A DNA stretch of 64,000 bases, from assembly GCA_041650635.1 (NCBI GenBank), contig JBAZKV010000008.1, forward strand, positions 2,253-66,252, read 5' to 3'. Under the pieces are notes generated by a model. It ran no database searches and was not told the origin of the DNA. It worked only from the letters and a program-made list of their open reading frames with translations. Shown here in pieces: positions 28,922 to 45,695 of this stretch. The DNA is from Candidatus Margulisiibacteriota bacterium. Its GTDB lineage: Bacteria; Margulisbacteria; WOR-1; JAKLHX01; JBAZKV01. The translations under genes were made by a program, and so were the position numbers. Within the stretch, counting starts at the first letter, position 1; each line of letters starts with the position of its first letter.

Positions 28922-30916
28922 CTATCCCAGGTTAACGGGATCAACATCAACGCTCAGTCTTATCTGCCTGTTCTTTGACAGGACAGCAACCATCTCTTTG
29001 AGCTTTGATTTAATGATAGCCAAATCCTGTCCCTTAATCAACATCTGATATCTGACCATACCGCGAAGTTTTTCCAGAGGGGCTTTTACCGGCCCCAGTA
29101 TCTCTATTGTCCGATCAAAGGCTTTGAGCTGCGAACAAATCTGCAGCGCCTCTTGCCTTACCGCCTCCCGGTCTTTTCCGGAGAGTATCACATTGATCAG
29201 GAAAGAGAACGGAGGATATCCGAAATCCTTTCTGGACATTATCTCCGTGGCATAGAACTTTTTGTAGTCCCCTTCCACCGCGCTTGTGACGGCATAATGC
29301 TGAGGATTAAGGGTTTGGATCACAACCCTGTCCGGAGGTATAGCGTTGTTATCTCCTGCGGTTATACGAAAAAGGAAGTCGAACGCGGACTCGGCCGCCC
29401 GAAAGTCGGGAGAGTTCAGTGCTGCGTCCGCCGAGATCACCGCGACAAGCCCGAACTTCTTTTTTGGCAGGGCCTTTAGCACCATCTGCGTCCCTATAAG
29501 CACCTGCGCTTCGTCCTTTACAAAGGCCTCAAGAGCTATCGAAGCGTTCTTTTTGGAACTGAGGTTGTCCCTGTCTATCCTTATGGTCCTGACCTTCGGG
29601 AACAGTTTTCCTATCTCGGATTCTATCTTCTGGGTCCCCGCACCGAAATAATTGATCGAATGGCTGAAGCATTTAGGACACACGATCTTTTTTTCCGAAA
29701 GAAAACCGCATCTGTGGCACCTGATAGTGCCATCCGGAGAATGATATGTAAGGGAAAGCGAACAGTTGGGACATTCTATCGCATTACCGCAGGCGCCGCA
29801 GACCAAAAATGGTGCGTATCCCCTCCTGTTCTGGATCAACATTACCGGCTTTTGTTCATCAAGCGATCGCGCTATCTCTTCCTTTAGAACTGAGCTTAAC
29901 TGCCTTGACCTTTCTTCCTTTGTGTCAACAACAAGGATCTCCGGCTTGCTGTCATTGACGATTTGATCTTTCTCGCTAAAAAAATACTTTCCGTTCTGAG
30001 CCCTAAAAAAAGACTCTACGCTTGGGCTTGAAGAGCTCAGGATCAACCGGGCGGACAGTTTTTCTGCCATGAACAAAGCGGTATCCCTAACATGGTATTT
30101 GGGGGTCTGCTCGGATTTATAGGTGAACTCGTTTTCATCCTCAACAATAATAAGTCCGGGATAGTGCACGGGCGCAAATATCGCGCTTCTTGTCCCTATG
30201 GCTATTTTTGCTTTCCCCAGGTACAGCCTTTCCCATTCACAAAACCTTTCTTTTTCGGTCATATTGCTATGGATAACGGCAACAATATCTCCGAAGTTCT
30301 TTTTGAATTCTTCCACGAACCGGTTGTCATGGCCTATCTCGGGCAGAAGCAGTATGACCCCCCTGTTTTCTGAAAGGGTTTTCTGGGCCTCTTTAATGTA
30401 TGTACCCGTCCTTTCTGACAAACCCGCATTAAAAAGCAGGACAGGCTTCCCAGCATCTTTCTTAGTTTGTTCTTTGGGAATTGGAAATTGTTTGCCCCGA
30501 TCCCTGTCGAGGGGGAAATTGCTTGCCCCGAGCCCTGTCGAGGGGGAAATTGGAAATTCTATCCTTCTCTTCCCCGCCGTCTTCTCATAAGCCTCTATCC
30601 CCGGAGGAAGGAACAGCCTTAGGGCGCTGCCGAACAGGCAGCAGTAGTAAAAAGAGATCCACTTTGCTGTCTCAACTGAGCGTCGGGAAAACAGAGGAAC
30701 TCTGGTCCTTATCTCAAGTATTTCTTTAAGGCGCTCTACCCCGGCTGGGGCTTCTTTTGAAATAGCCGTGATATAGCCGACCGCTTTTGCCCTGCCAAAA
30801 GGGATAAGCACCTGAATCCCGACAGCAGCTCTTGAGGTTGATTCCGCAGGGATCTTATATGTATATTCTTTGTCGGTCTGGGGAGAAACCTTGGAAAGGA
30901 CTACCTGGACATACAT
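28922..30916 (-). CDS. priA: Primosomal protein N' (PriA)
   Basis: LLPEI, GTRSAIFAP, NRRGYAP, Cys-rich zinc motifs, GTQKIE, VDVDP terminus. Walker A region looks degenerate. Confidence 0.9.
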   Translation of the reverse strand: MYVQVVLSKVSPQTDKEYTYKIPAESTSRAAVGIQVLIPFGRAKAVGYITAISKEAPAGVERLKEILEIRTRVPLFSRRSVETAKWISFYYCCLFGSALRLFLPPGIEAYEKTAGKRRIEFPISPSTGLGASNFPLDRDRGKQFPIPKEQTKKDAGKPVLLFNAGLSERTGTYIKEAQKTLSENRGVILLLPEIGHDNRFVEEFKKNFGDIVAVIHSNMTEKERFCEWERLYLGKAKIAIGTRSAIFAPVHYPGLIIVEDENEFTYKSEQTPKYHVRDTALFMAEKLSARLILSSSSPSVESFFRAQNGKYFFSEKDQIVNDSKPEILVVDTKEERSRQLSSVLKEEIARSLDEQKPVMLIQNRRGYAPFLVCGACGNAIECPNCSLSLTYHSPDGTIRCHRCGFLSEKKIVCPKCFSHSINYFGAGTQKIESEIGKLFPKVRTIRIDRDNLSSKKNASIALEAFVKDEAQVLIGTQMVLKALPKKKFGLVAVISADAALNSPDFRAAESAFDFLFRITAGDNNAIPPDRVVIQTLNPQHYAVTSAVEGDYKKFYATEIMSRKDFGYPPFSFLINVILSGKDREAVRQEALQICSQLKAFDRTIEILGPVKAPLEKLRGMVRYQMLIKGQDLAIIKSKLKEMVAVLSKNRQIRLSVDVDPVNLG
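30474..30558. repeat. Heptamer tract interrupted by two 24-nt hairpin modules inside priA
   Basis: TTGGAAA units; two are split TTG|24 nt|GAAA, with inserts at 30491-30514 and 30522-30545. Confidence 0.85.
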
Positions 30917-41626: not shown

Positions 41627-42211
41627 GTGGAACATGTTGAGGAATCCCACAGCAAGGCCTTAGTCCCAACGGAAGTCATTGAAAACAAGATCTTCGTGAT
41701 CAGAGGTCTAAAAGTAATGATAGACAAGGATCTGGCTGTCCTATACGGCGTAACCACTAAACGGCTAAATGAGCAGGTAAAAAGAAATATCAAAAGGTTT
41801 CCTCCGGATTTTATGTTAAAACTATCAAAAATCGAAGCTGAGATCGTTCTTGGCATACAAAATCCTTCAAGGTCGCAATTTGCGACCTTAAAGAATGGAG
41901 GTAGAACTCCTCTTAAGAGAGGTCAACATATAAAACATCTTCCCTATGTCTTCACAGAACAGGGGATTGCTATGTTATCCGGGATCCTCAACAGCGACCG
42001 GGCCATTATTGTAAACATCGCCATTATGAGGGCTTTTGTCAAACTGAACTGGATGATCTCAAGAAACAAAGAGCTTGAGCGCAAATTTAACGAACTTGAA
42101 CACAAGGTCGAGCGCCATGATGTCGACATCATGAACATATTCAACGCCATCCGGCAGCTCATGAAAGAAGAGGAAAAACCTAAAGGAAAGATCGGATTTG
42201 CCAGGGATTGA
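41627..42211 (+). CDS. ORF6N-domain protein
   Basis: IRGLKVMIDKDLAVLYGV, EQVKRNIKRFP, RSQFATL, PYVFTEQGIAMLS, IMRAFV. Confidence 0.9.
   Translation: MEHVEESHSKALVPTEVIENKIFVIRGLKVMIDKDLAVLYGVTTKRLNEQVKRNIKRFPPDFMLKLSKIEAEIVLGIQNPSRSQFATLKNGGRTPLKRGQHIKHLPYVFTEQGIAMLSGILNSDRAIIVNIAIMRAFVKLNWMISRNKELERKFNELEHKVERHDVDIMNIFNAIRQLMKEEEKPKGKIGFARD
41866..41916. repeat. Internal palindrome and adjacent 24-nt hairpin in the ORF6N gene
   Basis: AAGGTCGCAA-T-TTGCGACCTT (41869-41889), then AAGA-AT-GGAG-GTAGAA-CTCC-TCTT. Confidence 0.65.
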
Positions 42212-42222
42212 AGGGCCGAGAA

Positions 42223-42270
42223 AGAGCAGGAGAGCACAGAGAGCAGGAGAGCGCGGAGAGCAAGAGTAGG
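42223..42270 (+). repeat. AGAGCAGG-like tandem repeats upstream of the four-helix-bundle gene
   Basis: About 6 imperfect 6-9-nt units running into the AGGAGG RBS. Confidence 0.85.
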
Positions 42271-42279
42271 AGGTGAGAA

Positions 42280-42624
42280 ATGTCTAATTATAGAAAGCTT
42301 ATTGTTTGGCAAAAAGCGGACAAGCTCGCTACCCTTATATATGAGGCTACAAAATGTTTTCCAAAACATGAACTATTTGGGATAACTTCTCAACTTAGAA
42401 GATCTGCTTTGTCGGTTCCAACTAATATAGTAGAGGGCTATAGCAGAAAGAGCAGAAAGGAATTTAAACGCTTTATTGATATAGCACTTGCCTCACTTTG
42501 CGAATCCGAATATTTGCTGTATTTTTGCAAAAATATTGGTTATTTACATCAAGACACATCAAACATTGATAATCTGCTCACAGAAACGGACCGACTGTTA
42601 TGGAGTTTCTATTTAAACCTGTAA
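42280..42624 (+). CDS. Four helix bundle protein (23S rRNA IVS-protein/Avd-like family)
   Basis: YRKLIVWQKA, FPKHELFGITSQLRRSALSVPTNIVEG, EFKRFIDIA. Confidence 0.93.
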   Translation: MSNYRKLIVWQKADKLATLIYEATKCFPKHELFGITSQLRRSALSVPTNIVEGYSRKSRKEFKRFIDIALASLCESEYLLYFCKNIGYLHQDTSNIDNLLTETDRLLWSFYLNL

Positions 42625-42627
42625 GAA

Positions 42628-42730
42628 AGAGCGAGAGAGCAAGAGAGCAGAAGAGCAAGAGGGAAAATCCAATGTATAAAGGATTCTCATCCCGCTCCTG
42701 CTCTCCCATACTCCTGCCCTCCTGCTCTCC
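42628..42730. repeat. Direct AGAGCNAG octamers followed by complementary CTCCTGCTCTC tracts
   Basis: Purine tract 42628-42662; pyrimidine tract 42694-42730. Confidence 0.85.
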
Positions 42731-42749
42731 TATGTTATAATTACTTATC

Positions 42750-43427
42750 ATGTTCCACGATTGGACATTGCTGTTCCTGCTGCCGGCCATGATACTGGCG
42801 TTCTACGCCCAGTATAAGGTCAGCTCCACCTTTGCAAAGTATTCCAAGATCATGTCGGGCTCGGGTCTTTCCGGACAGCAATTTGCAAAGAACCTGCTTG
42901 ACAGAAACAGCCTGGGAAATGTCCTGGTAAAACAAACGCAGGGACATCTTTCTGATAACTATGACCCCAGGGACAAGACCCTTAACCTGTCAACCTCGGT
43001 TTACGGAGGCTCTTCCGTTGCCGCCCTGGGAGTGGTAGCCCACGAAGTAGGCCATGCAGTCCAGGATTCAAAAGCCTATTTCCCGTTAAAGCTGCGCTCG
43101 GCCCTGGTCCCTGTATCAAGCCTCGGCTCGCAACTTTCTATACCGCTGTTCTTTGTCGGCCTGATCTTTGCCATCGGCCCTCTGATGGATGCAGGCATAA
43201 TTTTTTTCTCGCTGGCGGTCGCTTTTACCGTTATTACCCTGCCGGTCGAGTTCAATGCCAGCAAAAGGGCGTATGCCATGATGACGGAAAGCGGCTATCT
43301 GTCCATGGAAGAAGCAGGCCAGGCAAAAAAGGTGCTTAATGCGGCCGCTCTCACCTATGTTGCCGCAACAGCAATGTCCGTGGCTCAGCTTTTGAGGCTG
43401 CTTATCCTGCGCGATTCAAGGAGATGA
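42750..43427 (+). CDS. Putative neutral zinc metallopeptidase (YugP-like)
   Basis: LSDNYDP, VAHEVGHAVQ, TLPVEFNAS, AAALTYVAA. Confidence 0.92.
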   Translation: MFHDWTLLFLLPAMILAFYAQYKVSSTFAKYSKIMSGSGLSGQQFAKNLLDRNSLGNVLVKQTQGHLSDNYDPRDKTLNLSTSVYGGSSVAALGVVAHEVGHAVQDSKAYFPLKLRSALVPVSSLGSQLSIPLFFVGLIFAIGPLMDAGIIFFSLAVAFTVITLPVEFNASKRAYAMMTESGYLSMEEAGQAKKVLNAAALTYVAATAMSVAQLLRLLILRDSRR

Positions 43428-44380
43428 ACGACACGATCCTGCTCTTTGGCCCCACCGCCTCCGGCAAAACAGACCTTTCGATAGAACTTGCACAGCAGAT
43501 CAACGGCGAAATAATCTCGGCCGATTCCATGCAGGTCTACCGTTATATGGACATCGGCACCGCCAAACCAACAAAAGAACAAAGAAAAAAGATCCCTCAT
43601 CATCTTATAGATATTGTTGATCCGGATGAAGAATGGACAGTATCTGATTTTATTCAGAGGTCTAACCGTTTTATCCGGGAGATCAGAGAAAAAGGAAAAA
43701 CTCCTATGATCGTTGGCGGTACAGGACTTTATCTGAATGCCTTTATAAACGGTTATTCCTTCCCTATCGCGGCAAAGAATGAAAAGATAAGAGAAAGATT
43801 ATCAAAAATGGGAACGGCGGACCTGTATAAAAAACTGCAGGATGTAGACGCCGACGCGGCAAAAAAGATCGATAAGAACGATAAAAAACGCATCATCCGG
43901 GCCCTTGAGGTGTATGAACAGACTGGGATGCCGATATCCAGGTTACAGCGCAATAATGTAGGGGCCGGTCGCGACAGGCCCTTACGGTTGATATGCCTCG
44001 ACCTTGATCGCACAATATTATACGACCGCATCAACCTCCGTGTGGACAAGATGATAACGGACGGATTGATCGATGAGGTCAAATCTTTATTATCTAAATA
44101 CGGCAAAGTAAGGGCGAATGATAATTCGCCCCTGCCTTCCCTGCAGGCACTGGGGTATAAAGAGACCATCGGATACCTTGAAGGAAAATACGGACTTGAT
44201 GAAATGACCGGGCTCATCAAACAAAAAACACGCAATTTTGCAAAAAGACAGCTGACCTGGTTCAAAAGGTTCGAGAATGTTACCTGGATAGATGCGCCAC
44301 ACACTCAATATGAGCAGTGTGCGGGAACATATCCACCGGCTGGATCTTTACTGTCTTGTATTTTCCGGAAAACAGCTTAA
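43424..44380 (+). CDS. miaA: tRNA dimethylallyltransferase
   Basis: GPTASGKT, SADSMQVY, DIGTAKP, VGGTGLY, NFAKRQLTWF. Confidence 0.96.
   Translation: MNDTILLFGPTASGKTDLSIELAQQINGEIISADSMQVYRYMDIGTAKPTKEQRKKIPHHLIDIVDPDEEWTVSDFIQRSNRFIREIREKGKTPMIVGGTGLYLNAFINGYSFPIAAKNEKIRERLSKMGTADLYKKLQDVDADAAKKIDKNDKKRIIRALEVYEQTGMPISRLQRNNVGAGRDRPLRLICLDLDRTILYDRINLRVDKMITDGLIDEVKSLLSKYGKVRANDNSPLPSLQALGYKETIGYLEGKYGLDEMTGLIKQKTRNFAKRQLTWFKRFENVTWIDAPHTQYEQCAGTYPPAGSLLSCIFRKTA
43958..43985. repeat. 28-nt GTAG-type REP inside miaA (VGAGRDRPL)
   Basis: GTAGGGGCCGGTCGCGACAGGCCCTTAC hairpin. Confidence 0.85.
44108..44135. repeat. Second 28-nt REP inside miaA (VRANDNSPL)
   Basis: GTAA-GGGCGAAT-GATA-ATTCGCCC-CTGC. 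Confidence 0.85.
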
Positions 44381-45695
44381 GGTCCCTTGCCAGGGTGGCA
44401 GGATCGCACGAAACATAAATAATCCTTGAGGGTTTAAGTTTAATTACAGATCCTATGACCCCCTGTGAGCACCCCGATCTTGGCGGATCCAGCACAACGA
44501 CATCAAATTTGGCATCGGTGTCCAAGAACTGCCTGATAATAACCTCTGAAGTCCCGCATTTAAAGAATGCGTTCTTTATGCCGTTTACCCCGGCATTTTC
44601 TTTTGCATCATCAATGGCATAATTATTTTCTTCAACGCCCCAGACCTCCTTGGCTTTTTTGGCCAGCCAAAGAGATATTGAACCGGTACCGCAATAGAGG
44701 TCAAGAACTGCTTCTTTACCCGAAAGAGAGGCAAAGTCTTCAACAACAGAATACAATTTGAGCGTTTGAACGGGATTGATCTGAAAAAATGACTTGGCAG
44801 AGATCTTGAACTCTAAAGGCCCGAGTTTTTCCTTTATCTTTTCCTGCCCCCACAATGGCTTTGTCTTTTCGCCAAGGATGACATTGGTGGACCGGCGGTT
44901 TTCATTCACCACAACACCTTTAAGGCCAAACTCCTTTTCCTCCTGCTCAATACTTTTTGTTAATGCGCTTACCAGATTTCTTGACCCTGGGATATTTATT
45001 TCTTTAGCCACAAGGCACAGGATGGCTTCTTTGGATGTAAACCCCACCCTTGCCAGGACATGCCTTATCAAACCACTGCCCCTGTCTTCGTCATAAACAG
45101 GAATATTGAAGTCGCTTATCAGCTTTTTAACAGCATTGGAAATCTTATTCAAAAAAGGATGCAGAACAAGACAATTATCAATATCAACTATCTCATGCGT
45201 TCCTTTCTTAAAATACCCCATTGCCACCATCAGCTGTTTGGAATTTGTAATTTGTGATTTGTTTAGGATTTTGGATTTAGGATTTAGGATTTTCCTGACA
45301 GGGTACTGCACTTTATTCCTGTACCCCCAGGGATCTTCCATGCCTACGACGGGCCTCACCACTTCCGGAGAGATCCCTCCGATCTTTTTCATTGTGTCTT
45401 TAACTATCTGTTCCTTTAATTTTAACTGTGCGCTGTATTCTATGTGCTGCATGTCGCAAGCCCCGCACTTTTCAAAATACTTGCACGGCGGCTGCACGCG
45501 GGACGGTGAAGCGGTAAGGATCTTATGTATCTTTGCGCGGCAATAATGTGATTTTGCTTCAGCTATCCTTATCTCGAGTTCGTCTCCGGGAACACCGTTA
45601 TCGACAAATACCGTCATCCCGTCTATGCGGGCTATCCCCTGACCTCCTGCGGCCAGAGTCTCTATTTTTGCTTTAACTATCTGTCCCTGTTGCAT
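44280..45695 (-). CDS. rlmD: 23S rRNA (uracil-5)-methyltransferase RlmD
   Basis: TRAM domain, C..FEKCGAC, SFFQIN, DLYCGTG, DPPRSG, YVSCDPATLARD, DMFPHT. Confidence 0.94.
   Translation of the reverse strand: MQQGQIVKAKIETLAAGGQGIARIDGMTVFVDNGVPGDELEIRIAEAKSHYCRAKIHKILTASPSRVQPPCKYFEKCGACDMQHIEYSAQLKLKEQIVKDTMKKIGGISPEVVRPVVGMEDPWGYRNKVQYPVRKILNPKSKILNKSQITNSKQLMVAMGYFKKGTHEIVDIDNCLVLHPFLNKISNAVKKLISDFNIPVYDEDRGSGLIRHVLARVGFTSKEAILCLVAKEINIPGSRNLVSALTKSIEQEEKEFGLKGVVVNENRRSTNVILGEKTKPLWGQEKIKEKLGPLEFKISAKSFFQINPVQTLKLYSVVEDFASLSGKEAVLDLYCGTGSISLWLAKKAKEVWGVEENNYAIDDAKENAGVNGIKNAFFKCGTSEVIIRQFLDTDAKFDVVVLDPPRSGCSQGVIGSVIKLKPSRIIYVSCDPATLARDLKLFSGKYKTVKIQPVDMFPHTAHIECVAHLSR
45237..45289. repeat. 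Heptamer tract inside rlmD
   Basis: TTTGGAA TTTGTAA TTTGTGA TTTG TTTAGGA TTTTGGA TTTAGGA TTTAGGA; encodes ILNPKSKILNKSQITNSK. Confidence 0.88.

Follow-up and report, generated by a model that had tools for sequence, protein, structure and literature searches.

The analysed stretch, hereafter the window, comprises 64,000 nucleotides (nt) of a contig from a Candidatus Margulisiibacteriota bacterium, and it contains a small gene of the PF05635 family (23S_rRNA_IVP or S23p; hereafter IVP) that is framed by short, mutually complementary repeat arrays. PF05635, labelled "four helix bundle protein", ranks among the small proteins that recur most often in annotated bacterial genomes without having been characterised, and ribosomal RNA (rRNA) intervening sequences (IVSs) have been known since about 1990. 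The question raised by this locus is what such a gene and its paired arrays represent when they stand between two protein-coding genes, here an ORF6N-domain gene and a Zn-peptidase gene. We find a discrete, recurrent cassette that has spread horizontally; it ends in inverted arrays that co-vary, and it is built like the rRNA IVSs that bear an open reading frame (ORF). The unit in the window is probably an IVS-type selfish gene cassette that landed outside rRNA.

Anatomy, empty site and predicted fold

The cassette occupies 514 bp (42219–42732, forward strand, as are all its parts) that are absent from the orthologous site of a related contig, L083, in the alignment of the two. From 5' to 3' it consists of a sense array (S1), a Shine-Dalgarno (SD) site, the PF05635 gene, a second, internal sense array (S2) and an antisense array (A). 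S1 (42219–42266), which forms the 5' terminus, has about five AGAGCAGG-like units of 8–9 nt; Tandem Repeats Finder (TRF) reported it at 42223–42266 with a period of 8 (and 17) and the consensus AGAGCAAG. It adjoins the ribosome-binding site AGGAGG (42268–42273), read from the sequence 6 nt 5' of the ATG. S2 (42625–42661) starts right after the stop codon and has four units of 8 nt (TRF: a purine array at 42628–42661, period 8). The 3' terminus is A (42683–42732), built of CTCCTGCY units and containing CTCCTGCTCTC twice (42695–42705 and 42719–42729), each copy being the exact reverse complement of GAGAGCAGGAG at 42239–42249. The cassette ends are the arrays themselves (AGAAAGAGCAGGAG... and ...CTCCTGCTCTCCTA) and constitute terminal inverted repeats. 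When up to two mismatches were allowed, GAGAGCAGGAGAGC had eight matches in the window, six of them at the cassette locus, compared with an expectation of 0.46, and none of 100 shuffles reached eight. The 64-kb window holds no second PF05635 gene and no further array of the cassette kind. The array positions, their complementarity and the ORF, all described in an earlier note made from the sequence alone, were borne out by sequence reading, TRF and Pfam, while two mechanical ORFs on the opposite strand (41944–42369 and 42578–42790) were rejected for want of support.

The gene itself (42280–42624) encodes a four-helix-bundle protein of 114 amino acids (aa) with a pI of 9.0. It matches PF05635 with an E-value of 7.7e-35 (119.8 bits compared with a cutoff of 33.8) over profile positions 1–104 of 106, and its translation carries, as RRSALSVPTNIVEG, the R-x3-S-x3-N-x2-E(G) motif that Zhang & Ye 2014 (PMC3936711) give as conserved in the family. 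As to the pentameric ring of four-helix bundles that characterises the family, the resemblance is at the sequence level, to the solved protein of PDB entry 2gsc (Xanthomonas XCC0516; E 5e-18) and to 2rld. Comparison with a 70%-identical copy that occupies another gene context (L090) gave a pN of 0.20 and a pS of 0.90, values by which the ORF is under purifying selection.

A search for an empty site in relatives, which the earlier note had proposed as a check, produced an exact one. L083 belongs to a related metagenome-assembled genome (MAG); its Zn-peptidase is 93% identical at the aa level, and the syntenic 4.7 kb are about 89% identical at the nt level. The two sequences are collinear up to 42218 and again from 42733, and the 514 bp between these points are absent from L083 with no base gained or lost: L083 reads ...GGATTTGCCAGGGATTAAGGCCG|TGTTATAATTATCTATCATG (GGCCG|TGTTATAAT at the joint), with no base between the halves. 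This alignment contains no target-site duplication at the junctions GGCCG|AGAAAG and CTCCTA|TGTTAT. The joined site in L083 is a near-consensus promoter, TTGCCA-16 nt-TGtTATAAT, with 11 of 12 matches plus the TG. In the window the cassette splits this promoter, and 514 bp lie between the −35 half (TTGCCA, 42198–42203, forward strand) and the extended −10 element of the Zn-peptidase gene (TGTTATAAT, 42733–42741, forward strand), which adjoins the cassette. Other contigs that carry the cassette at the same site, with a 99% identical protein, differ by whole repeat units: L084, L086, L087 and L088 lack 40 nt of S1 (AGAAAGAGCAGG|AGGTGAGAA) that L085 and L089 retain, and several lack one 8-nt unit of S2. 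The DNA contigs of the same population include strain variants, but no excised or empty form. The earlier note had spoken of an IVS-like excisable or mobile cassette; the IVS-like, discrete insertion stands, given the empty site in L083 and a build shared with a true rRNA IVS.

The minimum free energy (MFE) fold of 42200–42750 pairs 42225–42279 with 42683–42736 and encloses the ORF (z = −3.4), in keeping with the earlier note, by which the complementary repeats could loop out the whole gene. The 5' arm of this predicted closing stem (42225–42279, forward strand, by MFE and cofolding) includes the ribosome-binding site, and A provides the 3' arm. As an isolated duplex, S1:A is predicted to form an imperfect helix of about 45 base pairs at −67 kcal/mol, compared with −38 kcal/mol for S2:A, and the ensemble contains an expected 42.7 base pairs between S1 and A and 0.2 between S2 and A. 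In the fold the SD site pairs with 42685–42693 (UCUCAUCC), with GGAGGUGAGAA opposite UUCUCAUCC. The short-S1 strain variant is predicted to keep an outer S1':A helix and to add an inner S2:A helix, and the two coexist.

Related cassettes and their habitats

Homologous loci were collected in two protein subfamilies: subfamily 1 comprises the 80 closest loci in GTDB genomes (52–66% aa identity), and subfamily 2 a further 80 loci (L098–L177) retrieved with a Trichormus variabilis protein as query (70–98% protein identity). Across the two subfamilies about 155 homologous loci have 7–8-nt tandem arrays upstream of the gene and their reverse complement downstream, in a unit sequence that is specific to the locus. 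Subfamily 1 occurs in Nitrospirota, Omnitrophota, Planctomycetota, Elusimicrobiota, the Candidate Phyla Radiation (CPR) and other hosts. Its units (GCGGAAG, GCACAAG, GCACCAG, GCTGAAG and others) have their reverse complement downstream in nearly all loci, keep fixed positions (nAGnGCnn) and repeat with a period of strictly 7–8 nt. A sense array upstream and an antisense array downstream were recorded in 64 of 79 subfamily 1 loci, and a downstream sense array like S2 in 25 of the 79; the complete S1-ORF-S2-A layout is also present in L090, L062, L080 and L030.

The pairing of the two flanks was compared with several backgrounds. Raw inter-flank duplex energies were dropped as non-discriminating (background about −55, self −69 kcal/mol) and were replaced by counts of long-range pairs in the MFE fold and by statistics of perfect complementary runs; an exact-8-mer control set was also discarded, being contaminated by genes that adjoin IVP cassettes. 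In subfamily 1 the median number of long-range flank pairs was 35 for 74 IVP loci, whereas 146 segments drawn at random from these loci had a median of 10.5 (p = 4e-14). The flanks of 37 of 76 subfamily 1 loci share an uninterrupted complementary run of 10 nt or more, in 35 distinct sequences, compared with 5.6% for cross-locus and 1.8% for shuffled comparisons. Arm sequences differ even between cassettes on one contig (L006, L017, L059), yet the arms of each cassette match; since the sequence changes from cassette to cassette while the two arms continue to match, the arms co-vary. The earlier note had named relatives without complementary flanks as evidence that would tell against its idea, and the flanks of the relatives proved complementary and locus-specific.

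Subfamily 2 extends over at least eight phyla, including Cyanobacteria, Verrucomicrobiota, Bacillota, Acidobacteriota and Bacteroidota. Here TCAGGAG or TCAGAAT heptamers abut the ATG and CTCCTGA or ATTCTGA heptamers follow the stop codon, and variants change both arms together (AGAATCCAG with CTGGATTCT, GTAAGGAG with CTCCTTAC). Protein identity of 70–78% across these phyla, together with the constant TCAGGAG/CTCCTGA arms, points strongly to whole cassettes having spread horizontally in recent times. In three MAGs (L141, L155, L157), one of them labelled Limisphaerales (Verrucomicrobiota) and one Acidobacteriota, the subfamily 2 cassette lies directly upstream of an aspartokinase gene (MALIVQKYGGTSVG...).

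Several habitats are represented among these loci. In Picosynechococcus PCC 7003, cmr2 and cmr3 are separated by a cassette (L094 637–1077) that plasmid pAQ6 of PCC 7002 lacks (L097 626–649); the two sequences are 95.6% identical at the nt level, with about 441 bp added and 24 bp replaced, and the arrays in PCC 7003 supply new C-terminal codons and the stop of cmr2 as well as the leader of cmr3. At the level of these alignments, the two strains are a second filled/empty pair. Pseudanabaena has a cassette between cas6 and cas4. In Thermodesulfovibrionia MAGs, cassettes of about 0.5 kb stand at spacer positions of genuine CRISPR arrays (L006 88–1630 and L024 1–900), where the CRISPR repeat (...GACTTGATGAATAAAGGATTGCGAC) is normally spaced at 76–81 nt and across a cassette at 510–534 nt. 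The CRISPR repeat that follows each cassette in L006 and L024 lacks its first ~12 nt, and a second type of cassette in CRISPR arrays begins with a small conserved hairpin, GGCACGCC-N4-GGCGTG. IVP genes are known in CRISPR-cas loci (Zhang & Ye 2014, PMC3936711; Altae-Tran 2023, PMC10910872), an association that the accessible parts of both papers report at the level of genes, without mention of flanking arrays. The window copy is of the same family as these genes but, unlike them, has no CRISPR context.

The closest known counterparts are the ORF-bearing IVSs of 23S rRNA. The IVS of Coxiella burnetii has a 28-bp terminal stem that RNase III cuts in the middle, and two or three GACAGAT heptamers before the ATG whose number varies between strains; the origin and mobility of rRNA IVSs are stated there as unexplained (PMC4990558). 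A tblastn match on a plasmid of Azospirillum lipoferum 4B (L096) proved to be an IVP cassette in helix 45 of 23S rRNA, identified by its flanks (...CCGAAGCTGCGGAT and GGTAGCGGAGCGTTCCGTAAGCCTGCGAAGG), with inverted GACRGAN heptamer arrays at its ends and a closing stem of about 35 bp. Like the IVSs of Leptospira, Coxiella and Azospirillum, the window cassette belongs to the PF05635 family and has its ORF in a loop closed by terminal inverted repeats, and it shares with 23S IVSs the 7–8-nt tandem units of the arms beside the start codon, their strain-variable number and an SD site in or next to the stem. Unlike 23S IVSs, it lies between the ORF6N and Zn-peptidase genes, where it splits a promoter, and it has the extra internal array S2. 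Its flanks are protein-coding by Rfam and Pfam, with no rRNA and hence not in helix 9, 25 or 45 of 23S rRNA, and in the first locus set no locus had conserved 16S or 23S motifs. Moreover, unlike the decaying ORF of Coxiella, the window ORF is under purifying selection, to judge by its substitution rates, and has a strong SD site.

Paired arrays have also been described in Geobacter metallireducens, where classes 1–3 of "global regulator binding sites" are pairs of octa- or heptanucleotide arrays on opposite strands in operons, which Aklujkar et al. 2009 (PMC2700814) took to be bound by a global regulator or by IHF/HU. Class 3 has the consensus MTYCTGA, which is also the unit of IVP subfamily 2. 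The class 3 pairs examined lie about 100 bp apart and enclose no ORF (e.g. Gmet_I301A/B, 338111/338212), and the Geobacter arrays are not linked there to IVP genes or IVSs (PMC2700814). From this sequence likeness, class 3 pairs may be ORF-less derivatives of cassettes. Avd, which acts with a reverse transcriptase on structured RNA, has a related basic four-helix-bundle fold (PMC10053308). The kinship with Avd that the earlier note had pointed to holds for the fold; the bAvd profile (PF22296) gave 24.1 bits, below the Pfam cutoff of 40, and the genes within about 5 kb include no reverse transcriptase, template or variable repeat, the parts of a diversity-generating retroelement (DGR).

The cassettes are similar to miniature inverted-repeat transposable elements (MITEs) and repetitive extragenic palindromic (REP) elements in being small, intergenic, present in many copies and bounded by terminal inverted repeats. 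Unlike MITEs and insertion sequences (ISs), they show no target-site duplication, their ends are not conserved in sequence between copies, and they conserve an ORF that is not a transposase; no transposase was found within the cassette. The short tandemly repeated repetitive (STRR) sequences of cyanobacteria and the TAACTGA repeats of Beggiatoaceae (PMC4679880), likewise made of tandem heptamers, resemble the cassettes and may be linked to them.

Interpretation and alternatives

If the window unit is an IVS-type cassette, as we think probable, then in a read-through transcript from the ORF6N gene S1 and A would zip into the imperfect duplex of about 45 bp, which would loop out the ORF and bury its SD site. 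RNase III, whose excision of rRNA IVSs is proven (PMC4990558), would by analogy cut this duplex, so that an RNA of about 0.45 kb with the ORF would come free and the host RNAs upstream and downstream of it would be parted. After cleavage, or with a shortened S1, S2 could take A as its partner, and the ribosome-binding site would be exposed. Such a self-contained stem may make inserts tolerable in rRNA helices, CRISPR arrays, cas operons and a promoter region. That each locus has arm sequences of its own speaks for recognition by structure and not by sequence. Transcription would likely come from the ORF6N gene: a sigma-70 scan found no promoter consensus between the ORF6N gene and the IVP gene and none inside the cassette, and read-through is the likely source because the IVP gene has a strong SD site but no promoter consensus of its own.

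Several points weigh against this account. In 16 of 76 subfamily 1 loci (including L006, L007, L011, L013, L018, L022 and L024) a TGnTATAAT box lies 5–10 nt before the ATG, between the sense array and the ATG, and there is no SD site, which suggests that these relatives make leaderless IVP mRNAs from a promoter of their own. The upstream array would then be absent from the gene's own transcript, and pairing could occur only in read-through RNA. A search among RNA runs turned up none that contains the window cassette. RNA contigs of a Brocadia homologue, from metatranscriptome assemblies, pass without a gap from the cassette to the gene downstream and break only at the multi-copy array, although assembled contigs cannot reveal cleavage. 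The stem, moreover, is a prediction, and the rRNA precedent is the basis on which its cleavage and the effect on the flanking mRNAs are proposed; no mobility enzyme was identified for the cassette; and the direction of the event, insertion rather than loss, is read from the modularity of the cassette and not from an outgroup.

The alternative that survives best holds that the arrays act on DNA, as oriented multi-site binding platforms or as recombination ends, for mobilisation or transcription control; the binder could be a pentamer of the IVP protein, a nucleoid protein such as IHF/HU or a recombinase, and RNA pairing would be a by-product. It is compatible with an IVS-type cassette, and we regard it as possible though clearly the less probable account. 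The inserted unit begins and ends exactly with the arrays, the subfamily 1 units keep the fixed nAGnGCnn positions and the strict 7–8-nt period, relatives of the leaderless type have the sense array upstream of their −10 box, the IVP protein is basic (pI 9.0), and the similar paired arrays of Geobacter were read as regulator or IHF/HU sites (Aklujkar 2009, PMC2700814). Nevertheless, unit sequences diverge strongly between cassettes, even on one contig (L006, L017, L059), which fits poorly with a single sequence-specific binder; the property that is conserved is the complementarity of the two arms, and the stems of rRNA IVSs are proven RNA substrates (PMC4990558).

A two-state RNA switch, in which the ribosome-binding site is shut while S1:A forms (OFF) and accessible while S2:A forms (ON), triggered by translation, temperature or a factor, is unlikely. 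It could account for the position of the SD site inside the predicted S1:A helix, for the retention of S2 in the window lineage (the window and L090) and its presence in 25 of 79 loci, and for the folding of S2:A alone into a long hairpin of −39 kcal/mol, which gives sub-threshold matches to look-alikes of microRNA (miRNA) precursors. The two exclusive structures that the earlier note had imagined are, however, very unequal in energy (−67 and −38 kcal/mol) and the ensemble is almost purely S1:A, so that little speaks for them as a switch. S2 is missing from most loci, strains with a truncated S1 fold with both helices together, and in several other loci of the SD type (e.g. L047 and L064, judged by eye) the antisense arm does not bury the SD site. 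There is, moreover, no conserved element resembling a ligand pocket and no Rfam match: at the gathering score the window contains only two tRNAs, and at E-values up to 10 nothing meaningful was added beyond the miRNA-precursor look-alikes.

It is very improbable that the S2:A hairpin is a terminator or insulator of an ORF6N-IVP unit with S1 as antiterminator. A strong hairpin does follow directly after the stop codon, but the consensus scan of 42200–42750 found no terminator-like site and the sequence after A (ATGTTATAATT) has no U-tract, the RNA contigs of a homologous cassette extend beyond it into the gene that follows, and cassettes are tolerated within operons such as cmr2-cmr3 with gaps of about 36 nt. 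That the arrays are functionless, low-complexity purine/pyrimidine tracts produced by slippage is hardly credible: unit number does vary by slippage between strains, but the motif count is far above the shuffled expectation, the matching-arm architecture recurs in about 155 loci, and within the 64-kb window such arrays occur only at the cassette.

Beyond the window, and only as a conjecture, PF05635 genes with inverted-array arms could form a distinct and very widespread class of mobile cassette, of which the rRNA IVS would be the first-seen habitat. The ends might be recognised by shape; the Avd-like IVP protein, acting with a reverse transcriptase, RNase III or Cas1-Cas2, is a possible agent. 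Entry into rRNA helices, operons, promoters and, as 0.5-kb "spacers", CRISPR arrays would then be allowed, and ORF-less derivatives might explain the Geobacter arrays and perhaps the cyanobacterial ones. Such a general cassette is indicated by the exact empty sites and the co-varying arms. If the IVS is one landing place among several, then one explanation would serve for rRNA IVSs, for the IVP genes of cas operons and CRISPR arrays and for the paired arrays of short repeats read as regulator sites; short-period arrays would be better annotated as cassette ends than as promoters, terminators or regulator sites; and cultured cyanobacteria with filled and empty sites would be systems in which to study movement and the tolerance of inserts in transcripts. 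Separate publications already cover the protein family, rRNA IVSs, the heptamers of Coxiella, the occurrence of IVP genes in cas loci and the Geobacter arrays. No paper was found that describes PF05635 genes outside rRNA as IVS-type cassettes with locus-specific arms and empty sites, in a search that covered subscription journals thinly and leaves the novelty provisional.

Neighbouring genes and other repeats

Directly 5' of the cassette is the ORF6N-domain gene (41627–42211, forward strand; Pfam E 5e-29), the probable source of read-through, and directly 3' is the Zn-peptidase gene (Zn_peptidase_2; 42750–43427, forward strand; Pfam E 5e-87). Within about 5 kb the gene content is pyrC-like, rnc, leuCD, mgtC, ORF6N, Zn-peptidase, miaA, methyltransferase, PHP and hisD. 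The earlier note had remarked that rnc, about 4 kb upstream of the cassette, may be near it by coincidence, and this is most likely the case, because homologous cassettes occupy unrelated gene contexts, more than 150 in number. The idea that ORF6N and IVP form an obligate pair was considered and rejected: L083 has ORF6N without IVP, and both occur together in only three further loci. L030 has an ORF6N gene directly upstream of its IVP cassette, and in L015 one follows the IVP gene at a distance of about 1.1 kb downstream. The single ORF6N gene of the window (41627–42211) corresponds to two in tandem in L083 (2804–3978), which also contains, between the genes on the mgtC side and ORF6N, a masked run of N (2600–2795) with a direct repeat of 40 nt (AGCTTACCTACCCGCGGCAGGCTGGCGCCGGAATTGCTGT) on either side.

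The heptamer array of the Brocadia cassette (L128 1436–1468) joins at least three other sequence contexts in RNA assemblies from anammox reactors, so the array is multi-copy in that community or genome. Repeats of other kinds are present elsewhere in the window. A gene on the minus strand (44280–45695), similar to TRAM/tRNA-U5-methyltransferases, contains in-frame tandem repeats of 7–8 nt at 45235–45292 (AAATCCTA...) that code for KILNPKSKILNKSQITNSKQ, and the L083 orthologue has this repeat segment too, in a form altered by substitutions. At 30483–30552 there are 2.3 copies of a 31-nt tandem repeat (GGAAATTGCTTGCCCCGAGCCCTGTCGAGGG; 94% matching), each unit of which holds a small inverted repeat (CCCTGTCGAGGG).

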